A DNA stretch of 64,000 bases, taken from a virus (lineage: Duplodnaviria; Caudoviricetes). Positions 12,712 through 36,897 of this stretch are shown here, one piece after another. Location of the stretch: positions 13,819 through 77,818 of IMG/VR virus record IMGVR_UViG_3300031998_000051. One strand, given 5' to 3'. Under the pieces are notes generated by a model. That model was not told the origin of the DNA. It did not search any database and saw only the letters and a program-made list of their open reading frames with translations. The translations under genes were made by a program, and so were the position numbers. The stretch's first letter is position 1. The number at the start of each line of letters is the position of its first letter.

Positions 12712-14073
12712 ATGAAACGAGTTGGCAATTTGTGGGACAGCTTCATTTCGCTGAAAAATGCGGAGCTGGCTGTATACGACGGTACGCAGAATAAGCGCAC
12801 CGATTTTGTGGTGTATCGAAAGCTCGGATACCACGATAATATCCCGGAGCATATGGGCAAGCTGGATCCGAAGAAGGTGCGGCGTTATGCCCAGCACCGT
12901 ATCGATGATCTGAATAACGGCTGGACTGCCTCTGAAATGCGGCATTTGGTCGTGAAGCCCACCTATGGTAAAAAGCGGAATATCGACTGCCCATGCCTTG
13001 CCGACCATATCATACATTGGATGCTCATACAGACCATTCATGATCCTATCATGCGTGGAATGTATGAGCATTCCTATGGTTCGATTCCTGGTCGCGGTAT
13101 TGACGCTGCCCGGAAGACTGTAGAGAAGTGGGTGCGCCTGGATACAAAGGCAAAGTACTTCGTCAAGCTGGACATCCGCAAATTCTATGAACATATCGAT
13201 CACGACCTGTTGAAGACAGCTTTTCGTCGCGTCATCAAGGACACCAGAGTTCTGGATGTTATAGACAATGTCATTGACTGCGTTCCTTCCGGCGTTCCCA
13301 TCGGAACCTATACATCTCAATGGTTTGCAAACTTCTTCCTGCAACCTCTTGACCACCACATCAAGCAGGATATGTGCAAACTGCGGCGGGGCAAGCGCAC
13401 CAATTGGGCGGCGCATTATCTTCGCTACATGGATGACATGCTATTGCTCGGCACAAGCAAACGCGACCTTGAGAAAGCCATTAAGGAAATCATCAGGTTT
13501 TGCAGAGATGAATTGCATTTGGAAATAAAGCCCGCCTGGGAAATTCGCCGTATTGCCGTGGACTCCAATGACGTCGGCTCCGGCATCGCGCCTATTGATA
13601 TTGTCGGATACCGTTTCTTCCGTGATCATACCGAAGTCAGGGGCGGCATTTTTCTTCATACATCCCGTCTTGCGACGAAGATAGAAAAGCGCCTGCGTGA
13701 AAGAGGGGAGGTGCTGTTGCGCGATGCGGAAGGAATTGTAAGCCTGTGCGGTTGGTTCAGCCACGCAGACAGTCAGCACTTCATCAACGAATACATCAAG
13801 CCCAAGGTCAATTTGAAACTGATGAAAGAGGTGATATCGTATGCGAGTAAGCACGGAATTGTCGGAGAGGCCGCCCGTTTATTCTGTCACAAACGAGAAC
13901 GGGACGGCTTATATCAGATTCTATACGGACGTTCAGGAGGAGCAGCGCGACGACGGTTTTGTTTTCAAGGCAATTATGTGGGAGATGTCCTGCCCCTGGG
14001 CTCCGAACTTGGAGCGGAGGATCCACGACAACACGGCGAAGTGGCTGGCGAAGATCAAGGCCGTCACCCGTGA
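12712..14073 (+). CDS. DGR reverse transcriptase
   Basis: MKRVGNL start, YGSIPGRG, KLDIRKFYEHIDH, GVPIGTYTSQWFAN (DGR-type SQ motif), LRYMDD; adjacent TR/VR. Confidence 0.95.
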   Translation: MKRVGNLWDSFISLKNAELAVYDGTQNKRTDFVVYRKLGYHDNIPEHMGKLDPKKVRRYAQHRIDDLNNGWTASEMRHLVVKPTYGKKRNIDCPCLADHIIHWMLIQTIHDPIMRGMYEHSYGSIPGRGIDAARKTVEKWVRLDTKAKYFVKLDIRKFYEHIDHDLLKTAFRRVIKDTRVLDVIDNVIDCVPSGVPIGTYTSQWFANFFLQPLDHHIKQDMCKLRRGKRTNWAAHYLRYMDDMLLLGTSKRDLEKAIKEIIRFCRDELHLEIKPAWEIRRIAVDSNDVGSGIAPIDIVGYRFFRDHTEVRGGIFLHTSRLATKIEKRLRERGEVLLRDAEGIVSLCGWFSHADSQHFINEYIKPKVNLKLMKEVISYASKHGIVGEAARLFCHKRERDGLYQILYGRSGGAARRRFCFQGNYVGDVLPLGSELGAEDPRQHGEVAGEDQGRHP

Positions 14074-32762: not shown

Positions 32763-33197
32763 ATGATAATGGAACAAGGAATCATCATTCAGTTTCGTGA
32801 CAGCGACAAGGTGAGTATCTACAATCCCTGCTTCGATGTGACGCGCAACGAACTGGACATTGCGCTGAAGTCGGCGGTATCGGAGATGATCGACAAGGAT
32901 CTTACCAATTCCTCGGTGACGCTCAAACTGGACATTTGCGCCACTACCGAGGCGGTCGCTGATCGAAACGCACAGTCGGGATGCCGCGAGGCAAAGAACA
33001 TCGAGATCGGCGCGAAGGTCGGCTATACGCTTCAGTTCAAGAGCGAAGCCAAGTTCGACGTTGTCAGCGCGAAGCATGGCAAAGAACTGGTGATGGACAG
33101 CCAGGGCGAGTATTCCATGGTTTCGCACGAAGAAGCATCCGGGCAGCTTTCTATGTTCAATTCGTGGAACGAGTACAAGGCTGCCATGGAGCAGTAG
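32763..33197 (+). CDS. Hypothetical protein
   Basis: GGAGG RBS; 144 aa. Confidence 0.7.
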   Translation: MIMEQGIIIQFRDSDKVSIYNPCFDVTRNELDIALKSAVSEMIDKDLTNSSVTLKLDICATTEAVADRNAQSGCREAKNIEIGAKVGYTLQFKSEAKFDVVSAKHGKELVMDSQGEYSMVSHEEASGQLSMFNSWNEYKAAMEQ

Positions 33198-33253
33198 AGA
33201 CACTCAAACAGCCAACAGGCTGACGGGATAGAGAGATTAAGGAGGATTTTGAA

Positions 33254-33988
33254 ATGGCTACCACCGCAAAGAAGAACACGGATTCTCAGGAAATCATCAT
33301 CAAGCCGGTTAAGATTCAGAAGGCCGACATCACCATCGTCGGCGACACGCCGCTGATCGTTCATGCCTGGTCGGAAAAGGCCAAGCGCGAGATGCTGGAA
33401 GCACAGCAGAAGTTGAAGAAAGACAAGAAGGCAAAGGAGATCAGGCTCCCGGCAAATGAGTTTGTGAGCGCGGCCTACTGGTTGACGCCTATGCCGGAGC
33501 TTGGAACCGATCCCAGCGGCAAGGACACGCTTGCCAACTTTGAAAAGGCCATCGCAGCGGGCGCGAAGTTCGGCTTTCCGATCACGGCCATCAAGCAGGC
33601 GGCATTGGCGGCTTGCTACCGCGCAGGCATCATTCCCAACCAGATGGGCATGAAATGCAGCTTCTACCTCAACAGCAAGGACGGTGTCAACCTCGGCACC
33701 GGTTCCGAGCTGGCGGTGATCCAGTCCGACAATCCGCCGGTGATGCGTGAGGATATGGTCAAAATCGGCGGCGTGTCCAAGACGGCTGATTTGCGTTACC
33801 GCCCTATGTTCACCGATTGGAAAATCGATTTGACGGTCAGCCTGATTGATGTCGGCGTGTTCACGATGGAGTCGATCATCAATGCGATCAACCTTTCGGG
33901 TTACATGGGCGGCATCGGCGAATGGCGCATGGAGCGCGATGGTGACTTCGGCCACTACCATGTGGAGATTGATGGAGAGAGGGTGTAA
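33254..33988 (+). CDS. RAMP/Cas7-like RNA-binding protein (Vipr-like effector candidate)
   Basis: N-terminal ITIVGDTPLIVH strand, FPITAIKQAA helix (cf. RAMP IPGSSLKG), C-terminal Gly-rich loop SGYMGGIGEWRMERDGDFGHYHV; two genes upstream of the pentamer array. Confidence 0.72.
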   Translation: MATTAKKNTDSQEIIIKPVKIQKADITIVGDTPLIVHAWSEKAKREMLEAQQKLKKDKKAKEIRLPANEFVSAAYWLTPMPELGTDPSGKDTLANFEKAIAAGAKFGFPITAIKQAALAACYRAGIIPNQMGMKCSFYLNSKDGVNLGTGSELAVIQSDNPPVMREDMVKIGGVSKTADLRYRPMFTDWKIDLTVSLIDVGVFTMESIINAINLSGYMGGIGEWRMERDGDFGHYHVEIDGERV

Positions 33989-33990
33989 TC

Positions 33991-34473
33991 TTGGCAGCGT
34001 TTGAATGCAAGTATTCGTACCGTGTGCCTGGGCTTCAAAAGGCTCCGGCAGAGGTTGCGGGCAAAGTGTTCGAGGAGCTGGCGAACAGTGAAAAAGGCTT
34101 ATCGCCAAAGACGCTGGTAGATGCCAGCCGGGACGAGAATGCGCCGCTCCACGGAGAATTCGAATGGCGCGACGATGTGGCAGCAGAGAAATACCGCCTG
34201 TCTCAAGCGCAGGGCATTATCCAGAATCTGCGCATCGTGACAGTGCAGGCCGATGGTAGCGAGGCAATGGATCGTGCGTTTGTGGTTAAGCCTGGCGGCG
34301 AGAGCAATTATGTGGCGTTGCAAAGCGCATTGAGCCGTGAAGACTGGAAAGACCATCTGCTCGAAGAAGCCAGACGCGACGTCAAATGCTTCTTAGGCAA
34401 GTATCGCCGTTTGCGTGCTTTGTCTGGGATAACAAGTGCGATGGAGCAGTTTCTCCATAATGATGTCGGTTGA
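33991..34473 (+). CDS. Conserved partner protein between the RAMP-like gene and the array
   Basis: TTG start 2 nt after the previous stop; LSPKTLVDASRDENAPLHGEFEWRDDVAAEKYRLSQAQGII motif. Confidence 0.75.
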   Translation: MAAFECKYSYRVPGLQKAPAEVAGKVFEELANSEKGLSPKTLVDASRDENAPLHGEFEWRDDVAAEKYRLSQAQGIIQNLRIVTVQADGSEAMDRAFVVKPGGESNYVALQSALSREDWKDHLLEEARRDVKCFLGKYRRLRALSGITSAMEQFLHNDVG

Positions 34474-34480
34474 CGGTTGC

Positions 34481-35541
34481 GTAGGGCTCCGTTATAAAAA
34501 AGCCTGAGACATGGTAAGGATTGGCGGGTTGGAGTTAGGTATGGCGGCGAGGGTTATGGCAGTCGAGGATAGGCGCGGAAAGTTGCGGTTGCGCGGAGTA
34601 TGGCAAGGCACGGTATGGCAGTCTCGGAGGGGCACGTTAGTGCGCGGAGGGGCTTGCTCCGGATGCGAGGGGCTTGTCAAGGCAGTCTTGGAACGTTTCG
34701 GTTCGGTGCGTACAGGTGTTGCACGGTAAGGCTGGGCAGTCTTGGTTCGGTTAGGCATGGAGCTGTTAGTTCCGGCTTGATGAGGCAGTCGAGGATGGGT
34801 CAGGCGCGTAAACGGTGCGGCATGGTGCGGTCCGGCGCGGCAGTCGTGGACAGGAATGCAATGTCAATGTGAGTATAGGCATGATGCGGATCTGAACGGT
34901 GTGGCAGTAATGGATCGGTCAGTCGCGTAAAGGCGCGGCGGCGCACGGTTAGGCAGTCTCGGATGGGCAGTGCGATGTTACGGATGGTTCCGGCAATGTT
35001 CGGCTGGGCGCTGCAAGGCTTGGCAGTCTCGGATTGTTTCGGCGATGCTCGTTGAGGCAAAGCTGGGTATGGCAGTCTTGGAATGTCAGCGCGTGTTGAC
35101 GATTGCACCGGCGCGGCAGGAATGCCACGGGTTATGTAGGGCTCCCGGTCAACAAAAGCCCGAGACATGGAGAGTAGAGGCTGGTCTGTGTTTGGTATGG
35201 TTTGAAGAGGTATGGCAGTCGTGGACAGGAACGGATCGGTCAGTCCCGTATCGTTAAAGCAAGTAGGGTATCGGTTCGGTTTGGCAGTTAAGGACAGGAC
35301 AGGCTTGGAAGGTATGGTGGGTTTTGCATTGTATCGGATAGTTTTGTCATGGCAGTCAAGGCGAGGCGCGGAAGTGAGTGGCTTGTCGCGGATTCGCACG
35401 GAGTGTATCTGTGTGGCAGTTCTGGAAGCGATGGGTTAGGCTCGTACAGGCAAGGTAACGCGGGTTGTGGCAGCCGAGGATAGTTGCGGACGCGCCTGTC
35501 AAGTTGGTGCCTGGTGAGCCGTGTTGGGACAAGGCAGTCAC
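34481..35541 (+). ncRNA. Array of 17 pentamer-periodic (GGY-NN-like) units separated by GGCAGTC-NN, in two leader-headed sub-arrays
   Basis: GGCAG(T) junctions at 34558, 34617, 34681, 34735, 34784, 34839, 34903, 34952, 35022, 35071, 35115, 35214, 35283, 35351, 35415, 35469, 35533; 12 of 15 intervals equal 5n+4 nt. Confidence 0.88.
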
Positions 35542-35586
35542 GGAAATTCTGTAAGATTGGAGGTAACAACAACGGATATAAGAAGC

Positions 35587-36024
35587 GTGAGCTTCACTGT
35601 TCCGGGTGAGCCTGTCGGTAAGGCTCGCCCGAAAACAGTGAACATAAAGAACAGGGCTACAACGGTAACGTTCACGCCGGAGAAAACGGTGATATATGAA
35701 AACCTTGTGAAGGTCGAGTATCAACAACAATGCCATAACTTCTACTTCGGTGAGAAGCAACCATTGATAATGGAGATCATCTGTTATTACGGAATGCCGA
35801 AGTCTGACAGCAAGAAAAAACGGGCCGCGAAGCTGGCTGGAGAGATCAGGCCAACGAAGAAGCCGGACATCGACAACTGCATCAAAGCCATTGCAGATTC
35901 TTTGAACACTATCGCATACAAGGATGATACGCAAATCGTAAAGGTGGTTGCGGAAAAACGATATTCGGAGAAGCCCAGAGTGGAGATTACGATTTCGGAC
36001 ATAAATGAGGAGGACGGCAGATGA
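35587..36024 (+). CDS. rusA: RusA-like Holliday junction resolvase
   Basis: FTVPGEPVGKARP, KKPDIDNCIKAIADSLN..AYKDD.QIV. Start codon uncertain. Confidence 0.88.
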   Translation: MSFTVPGEPVGKARPKTVNIKNRATTVTFTPEKTVIYENLVKVEYQQQCHNFYFGEKQPLIMEIICYYGMPKSDSKKKRAAKLAGEIRPTKKPDIDNCIKAIADSLNTIAYKDDTQIVKVVAEKRYSEKPRVEITISDINEEDGR

Positions 36025-36897
36025 AACCCTACCCTATCACGTCTCCCGATCATTTGCGTGACCTCACGAAAATGGTCAAGTGGGACAAGGACAAGAAGGC
36101 CATATGGGATTTCGCCGATGACTGGTTTCGGAAAGGCGATCAGCGCCAGGTTACGCTTGAAGTCGGCAGTAGCGCCCAGGTGGTCTACACCACCGACAAG
36201 AAGCGGATCGTGCTGGCGACGCTGTATCAGCGGGCGGCAAAGGACTATGTGAACGGAGTGAGGGTATGAGCCATCTTCGCATACCGCAGCTCAAGGAGCG
36301 CTGGCACAATATTCCGCGCAATGAGGAAGTTGTCATCGCGCTTTGTCAGACACCGCACATTCAGCTTCATAATGGCAGGGCATACGACACCAAGGATGCG
36401 GATCCTGCGATGCTGGATTACTATCATCGGATGGAGCAGAGCGCATTGATGAAGCATGATAATCGAAAAGTTATCAACTCCACACACTTTCTGGAACTTG
36501 CAGAGAAGTACAGGCAGAGACGGGAGAGCATGGAAGCGATTTTGAAGGAGCTGGATGAATGATTTACATGACACAGATTCAGCTGAAAACCGCGCTGGAT
36601 GATATTCCGACAAGTGAAAACATCAATATTGCCCTGTGCAGTGTTCCGGCATATCAGGTAAACGGTATTGATACATATGAGCGCAGGCGGGCAGCGGAAG
36701 CAATCGCGTTATTCTATCGCCGGAGGGCAAGCGAGAACTGGGAAAAGGATCGCCGCAGCTATTCGAAAAAGAAGAAAACACGGCACTATGCCGACATGGC
36801 CAGAAACTGGCTCAAAAAGGCGCAGGCCATTGAGAGAATCATTCTGAAGTGGGACATGGAGGAGAAGCCGGATGAACATTATCAAGCCGTCATTTGA
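36021..36897 (+). CDS. Three overlapping hypothetical genes (36021-36269, 36266-36562, 36559-36897)
   Basis: ATGA-type coupled ORFs with protein-like composition. Confidence 0.55.

Follow-up and report, generated by a model that had tools for sequence, protein, structure and literature searches.

The locus studied here raises the question of what a Cas7-like gene, a coupled partner gene and a 1-kb stretch of recurring GG dinucleotides do together in a phage genome. We analysed a window of 64,000 nucleotides (positions 13,819 to 77,818 of IMG/VR record IMGVR_UViG_3300031998_000051) from a phage genome of 77.8 kb that is complete (100%, as CheckV reports); the listed public runs holding DNA of the locus are bovine gut metagenomes (DNA runs). 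An earlier note on this DNA had proposed a minimal module of filament protein, accessory protein and guides that would act on competing phages or host loci by binding rather than cutting. Our reading, to which we give a probability of about 93%, is that the locus is a VIPR system of this rumen phage, in which vipr and vap are joined by some 16 vrRNAs in a staggered array, with targets in rival phages.

VIPR (Viral Interference Programmable Repeat) is a CRISPR-related weapon first described in 2026. It comprises a lone ancestral RAMP (Vipr), an accessory gene (vap) and vrRNAs of 9-16 GGY-NN pentamers; Vipr polymerises with one protomer per pentamer and hides GGY, the NN pairs read dsDNA while skipping every third base, and rival phages and satellites are thereby transcriptionally silenced (10.64898/2026.04.26.720920, 10.64898/2026.04.26.720927, 10.64898/2026.10.15.759431). 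Transcription and processing of vrRNAs, their binding by Vipr and the resulting repression are established for SUSP1 and P. fulva only (VIPR preprints).

The locus is set in the replication module of the phage, with a primase-helicase on one side and RusA on the other. The RusA gene starts at 35521, and the roughly 1 kb between vap and RusA is free of credible ORFs. The reading-frame layout described earlier, a 244-aa ORF followed 2 nt on by a 160-aa ORF and 8 nt further by a leader, was confirmed throughout. The two genes are as follows.

33254..33988, plus strand: vipr, encoding the 244-aa Vipr protein, a lone Cas7-like RAMP by profile, fold and GG-contact residues.
33991..34473, plus strand: vap, a 160-aa accessory gene with a TTG start (PHROG 15946, function unknown).

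Neither protein had a match in Pfam, both fell into PHROGs families of unknown function only, and Rfam gave no match in 33000-36200. The 244-aa protein is a member of a very large family, which counts 2,373 clusters at 50% identity (E<=1e-3). A 74-member profile of it (A1) matched one solved structure, PDB 36pp, at chain 36pp_D, "SUSP1 Vipr protein" (E 9.5e-14), and the single sequence found the same chain at E 4.4e-5. Using hhalign, the family aligned with SUSP1 Vipr at a probability of 98.4%, the significance by profile methods being confined to the C-terminal third.

The AF2 model of the protein, built on 74 relatives (pLDDT 93.3, pTM 0.86), predicts a minimal RAMP with an RRM core, a G-loop and a thumb. 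Searched with Foldseek, it retrieved at E<=1e-3 solely Cas7-family RAMPs (type VII Cas7, Csm3, Cmr4 and Cas7-11). VIA-align superposed it on Csm3 (9g9g_I) with Z 11.2 over 157 residues at an rmsd of 3.8, and all 50 entries listed were Cas7-type RAMPs. The RAMP fold proposed in the earlier note is thus borne out by the top matches of both structure searches. Its three motifs are present in the order it gave, and in the model ITIVGD forms the first strand (21-30), ITAIKQAALAACYR a long helix (110-123) and GGIGEWRMERDGDFG the glycine-rich loop that precedes the last strand. The predicted RRM core, glycine-rich loop and thumb are shared with the Cas7 backbone subunits Csm3, Cmr4 and type VII Cas7 (Z 9-11 over about 155 residues).

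In SUSP1 Vipr, residues H17, R138, D177, W178 and R179 hold the two guanines, and C173 helps exclude purines from position 3 of the repeat (VIPR preprints). The five guanine contacts correspond to H37, R183, E223, W224 and R225 of the 244-aa protein. The last four were placed by hmmalign against SUSP1 Vipr; H37 was placed by eye, from an N-terminal stretch that matches without gaps (IKITGTRPFLSHA / ITIVGDTPLIVHA). The replacement of D177 by E223 is conservative, and R183 and R225 are invariant across the 74-sequence alignment. The pocket residue C173 is replaced by G219. The G-loop (residues 219-225, encoded at 33908-33928) reads GGIGEWR, and CGVGDWR in SUSP1. By homology, the 244-aa gene is a Vipr gene.

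The partner gene starts 2 nt past the vipr stop. Its product was modelled with a pLDDT of 92.5 as an N-terminal alpha/beta domain followed by a C-terminal helical hairpin. Foldseek found nothing for this model at E<=1e-3, and a wide VIA search gave only helical-hairpin matches (Z 5-6) besides weak winged-helix-like ones to the N-terminal domain; as the latter reach only Z ~5, a DNA-binding role of the protein is only a guess. Similarity to vap1 of SUSP1 was not detectable.

Using a closer alignment (A3) among other searches, we gathered 125 related loci with Vipr identities of 27% to 92% from viral contigs and genomes (viral contigs, Clostridia, Selenomonadales, Collinsella, Alphaproteobacteria and others); a single-protein search of genome contigs with the 244-aa sequence returned no related loci. 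Linkage was counted in the 102 distinct loci whose downstream sequence covers at least 1.5 kb. In 99/102 of them vipr is followed by a gene for a homolog of the 160-aa protein, and a GG-pentamer array on the vipr strand lay within 1.5 kb in 85/102, the order being vipr-vap-array in 26 loci and vipr-array-vap in 58. Within the same loci, array-like windows made up 0.153 near vipr and 0.0013 far from it, a 115-fold difference. The coupling of vipr to both the partner gene and a same-strand pentamer array, which the earlier note had suggested be surveyed among homologs, therefore holds across the family, and this co-conservation marks the 160-aa gene as a conserved accessory gene (vap). Two of the relatives are cultured phages with the same vipr-vap type and very regular GGC-NN arrays, their genes being annotated as hypothetical.

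L408:2126-3576, Mycobacterium phage Quico: array, gp57 (vipr) and gp58 (vap).
L409:2483-3796, Gordonia phage Ecliptus: gp19 (vipr), array and gp20 (vap).

Downstream of vap, GG recurs at lags 5, 10 and 15 at 2.5x, 2.3x and 2.1x the expectation and at lag 20 likewise within 2.1-2.5x, while the intervening lags are depleted. Elsewhere in the 64-kb window, no 150-nt segment of the two strands attains the lag-5 count of the array. The consensus consists of GG-H-NN pentamers on the vipr strand, with A27/C36/T21/G1 at position 3 and variable bases at positions 4-5; one G is missing from many of the internal pentamers. The loss of the cysteine in the G-loop of the protein coincides with A being common at position 3 of the repeat (27/85 pentamers). 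At GGCAG(T/C) junctions the region falls into some 16 units, each 49-70 nt long. The length is 4 mod 5 in 11/15 units, so that the register of pentamers runs unbroken from a shared G to the next GGCA: the last G of GGCAG opens G-TC-NN, 9-12 GG-H-NN pentamers follow, and the next GGCA closes the unit. A 33-nt leader (GTAGGGCTCC...AAAAGCCYGAGACATGG) is present twice and divides the array in two, so that each sub-array follows one copy. The parts are listed below, with the slash marking the junction.

34470..34498, plus strand: candidate array promoter (TTGACG, 17 nt, TATAAA; read by eye).
34481..34513, plus strand: leader copy 1 (GTAGGGCTCC...AAAAGCCTGAGACATGG; direct repeat families D5 and D14).
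34513..35136, plus strand: vrRNA sub-array A, about 10-11 guides with GGCA/GTC-NN junctions.
35137..35170, plus strand: leader copy 2 (direct repeat families D5 and D14).
35170..35541, plus strand: vrRNA sub-array B, about 6 guides.

Leader copy 1 begins 8 nt past the vap stop. The candidate promoter (hexamers at 34470-34475 and 34493-34498) overlaps the stop codon of vap. No plus-strand site near the array was reported by the promoter and terminator scanner, which missed this candidate because it demands a T at the end of the second hexamer. A good -35/-10 pair is found upstream of leader copy 1 only. The guides at 34784-34838 and 34903-34951 share the run GGTCA-G(G/T)CGC-GTAAA (repeat family D7, 81% identity), which suggests duplication and divergence of a guide within the array.

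In the staggered vrRNA arrays that the preprint describes for other VIPR types, neighbouring units overlap by 1 nt, each ending where the following one starts (fig. S18, 10.64898/2026.04.26.720920). In the same way, the final G of GGCAG here opens the following pentamer, G-TC-NN. The architecture fits this "staggered" form as given in the text description of the preprint, and, judged by its repeat pattern, the 1-kb stretch after vap consists of GGH-NN pentamers in a staggered vrRNA array.

To read the guides, we decoded the units as NN-x-NN-x according to the published one-base-skip rule. IMG/VR was scanned with the first eight dinucleotides of six guides, after which the remainder of each guide was scored; in all, searches of public collections or genomes covered nine guides. 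Two of them gave clear targets.

35351..35421, plus strand: guide matching DUF7307 genes (Pam3 gp33-like, PF23984) of other phages; peptide IVTETVNANTLASF.
34617..34687, plus strand: guide matching DUF2800 genes (PD-(D/E)XK exonuclease, PF10926) of other phages; peptide KPQGKPALVPE.

The first matched 24/24 NN bases in 13 viral contigs and 22/24 in 18 more, all within DUF7307 genes. The second matched 23/24 in 9 contigs and 22/24 in 46, and 101/115 of its seed matches lay within DUF2800 genes. For both guides the third bases vary among the matches, and the base left out falls on the wobble position of the codon. With a few dozen seeds, we estimate that an 8/8 extension is expected by chance 3e-4 times and a 7/8 extension about 1e-2 times. 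The DUF2800 and DUF7307 genes are absent from the complete phage genome, which also holds no self-target at >=80% NN match, as in the published VIPR systems (VIPR preprints). Thus, as decoded from the array, at least two guides are aimed at genes of rival phages, in agreement with the earlier proposal that competing phages are targets.

The other guides searched gave less. Guide 34681 had 6 matches (best 20/22), consistent with chance, and guide 35469 had 4 (best 21/24), with nothing clear among them; guide 35415 gave 9 matches at 18-19/20 in metagenome contigs, in inconsistent phases. The full guide 34558 had 0 matches in metagenome contigs, and guide 35214 had 0 in viral contigs and 0 at <=3 mismatches in 401 genomes from the order to which an Oscillospiraceae MAG belongs. 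In 1.9 Mb of related vipr loci, no window guide had a significant match. In the fetched loci, guides 34617 and 35351 were the only ones of 17 units to reach an NN match of >=85%, and no locus was matched by two different window guides.

A further guide bears on the strongest alternative, in which the VIPR system would be mainly an anti-defence device whose guides silence host immunity genes (BREX brxL) and not rival phages.

34839..34909, plus strand: brxL partial-match guide (BREX type 1 operons; peptide VQIMKDYMAS).

This guide matches brxL at a conserved motif with 20/24 bases, the first 10 dinucleotides being exact, in 16 contigs. The matches sit inside complete BrxC-PglX-PglZ-BrxL operons, again with the skipped base on the wobble position. 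However, of all guides in the array it is the most degenerate in GG content, and its AT-rich seed found 83 matches, about 67 of them outside brxL, so that chance alone would, by our estimate, give a four-base extension about 0.1-0.3 times. Moreover, no other array of the clade matched BREX loci, and BrxL protein already made would survive transcriptional silencing. The significance of the brxL match is therefore moderate; the match is suggestive and we treat it as a lead only. It seems doubtful that this guide gives the phage an RNA-guided silencing of host BREX besides that of rival phages, and we consider a system directed mainly at host immunity unlikely.

The decoding rule itself was examined across the clade. 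When every array was searched with spaced seeds against every vipr locus fetched, a one-base skip gave 646 matches versus 470 for reversed guides; skips of 0 and 3 gave no excess and a skip of 2 a small one (407 versus 350). For one-skip matches of >=9 dinucleotides, 126 related arrays gave 874 versus 20 for reversed guides, a comparison run against the loci brought in by the guides of the window. The skipped base fell on codon position 3 in 467/593 of the clade matches, which are not independent since their targets are homologous.

These results bear on a second alternative, according to which the repeats are a DNA element (an iteron replication origin, a partition or a packaging site) bound by the 244-aa and 160-aa proteins, with no guide RNA involved. 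The position between primase-helicase and RusA in the replication module would suit such an element, as would the relatives, whose loci stand ahead of a replication organiser and DnaB, and the listed runs with this DNA are DNA runs. Against this, a solved Vipr is a homolog of the 244-aa protein, whose predicted fold is that of a RAMP, the repeats show a strong strand asymmetry, and the variable dinucleotides yield exact gapped, wobble-skipping gene matches, which iterons do not predict; we regard a DNA element as very improbable. A CRISPR-Cas module that is minimal or has degenerated (a cryptic array and a Cas7 of type III/IV-like kind) and reads contiguous spacers is hardly credible, for although the nearest solved folds are Csm3, Cmr4 and type VII Cas7, the locus is without CRISPR repeats or spacers, Tandem Repeats Finder found nothing, the repeat unit is 5 nt, zero-skip decoding gave no excess over the control while one-skip decoding did, and Cas1 is absent from the complete 77.8-kb genome, as the earlier note had indicated for the locus.

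The locus falls outside CRISPR-Cas class 1. No tandem or CRISPR-like repeats were found at the locus, which unlike class 1 effectors has no adaptation genes, large or small subunits or nuclease. Its periodicity is 5 nt with three bases hidden, whereas that of class 1 Cas7 is 6 nt with one base flipped.

Among the known systems, the closest comparison is with the Escherichia phage SUSP1, whose type II VIPR consists of Vipr (PDB 36pp), vap1 and four vrRNAs. Vipr is homologous, with the same GG-binding residues, and the gene order vipr, vap, array is shared (read from the SUSP1 genome, where pentamer arrays flank vipr-vap1). In both, the guides are made of pentamers whose NN vary, they match coding DNA under the one-base-skip rule with the wobble position left out, and their targets are rival mobile elements. 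In contrast to SUSP1, vap is of a family unrelated to vap1, and position 3 of the repeat is A, C or T here instead of the published pyrimidine, with G219 in the place of C173. About 16 guides stand head to tail through GGCA/GTC, whereas the four of SUSP1 are separate RNAs of about 100 nt with pseudoknotted tails. The host is a rumen Clostridia-type bacterium and not E. coli, and the target class differs from that of the characterised type II systems. Seven VIPR types, six vap families and staggered arrays have already been reported in 10.64898/2026.04.26.720920. At the level of sequence, the locus displays every feature by which a VIPR system can be recognised.

By analogy with the SUSP1 experiments, the array would be transcribed from the promoter at the end of vap and then cut at the junctions. 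One Vipr protomer would bind each GGH-NN pentamer of the processed vrRNA, giving a helical filament that conceals the GGH bases and exposes the NN pairs. These would pair with rival dsDNA with every third base skipped, so that a guide would read the first two letters of successive codons. The array would be aimed in this way at conserved coding motifs of rivals, in the DUF2800 PD-(D/E)XK exonuclease gene and the DUF7307 gene. Binding to the DNA would block transcription rather than cut, and Vap would enhance the silencing. Binding without cutting by a filament of fixed periodicity, as the earlier note had it, is what the VIPR preprints demonstrated experimentally for SUSP1 and may be expected here by analogy. 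The earlier interpretation was essentially right; the one-base-skip code was not foreseen in it.

The targets of the related arrays extend this picture. About 20 independent arrays of the clade target DUF2800, an Enc34-type SSB (PF10991) or a family A DNA polymerase, which belong to one replication module; the observation concerns L280-L394 (for example L280:8919-10620 and L282:5754-7814). More securely than for brxL, the matches indicate that this large clade, with members in actinophages and in prophages of Clostridia and Alphaproteobacteria, is directed as a whole at one replication module of rivals. The main text of the three preprints does not mention the module targets DUF2800, SSB and PolA (10.64898/2026.04.26.720920, 10.64898/2026.04.26.720927, 10.64898/2026.10.15.759431).

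The phage is itself matched by the guides of others. Its portal gene (PF04860), 10 kb before the start of the window, is matched at L127:3666-3704 (genome G000). A guide of another phage (L104:10765-10829) matches it with 23/26 NN bases on the plus strand, the best match of the search, and a guide of a third phage (L065:2687-2731) matches the same 40-bp site with 18/18 on the minus strand. Both matches fall on the motif NIENQSLEFVKYT with the skipped base on the wobble position, and that of the L104 guide begins exactly at its GGCA/GTC junction. Guides from two further loci (L063 and L032) match vipr genes of other phages (L115:1719, L099:3992, L106:2654, L108:10421 and L109:8062) over 8-10 dinucleotides, those of 8 dinucleotides being near background. 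They resemble the published guides of SUSP1 relatives against the VIPR of their own relatives (10.64898/2026.10.15.759431).

VIPR is already in print (2026 preprints), and the locus leaves the known picture of its working unchanged. Beyond the models in E. coli and Pseudomonas, it provides a natural case that is well resolved and notable in four respects: its accessory protein is a different one, the third base of the repeat is relaxed, the guides form a head-to-tail array, and natural targets can be decoded. It also confirms that a VIPR system can be recovered by reading sequence alone. Because the same vipr-vap type occurs in cultivable phages of Mycobacterium smegmatis and Gordonia terrae, its biology is testable. 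Furthermore, the target analysis points to an arms race among rumen phages, in which the guides of this phage would read conserved codons in the replication genes of its rivals, while on the other side the guides of two other phages would read its own portal gene.
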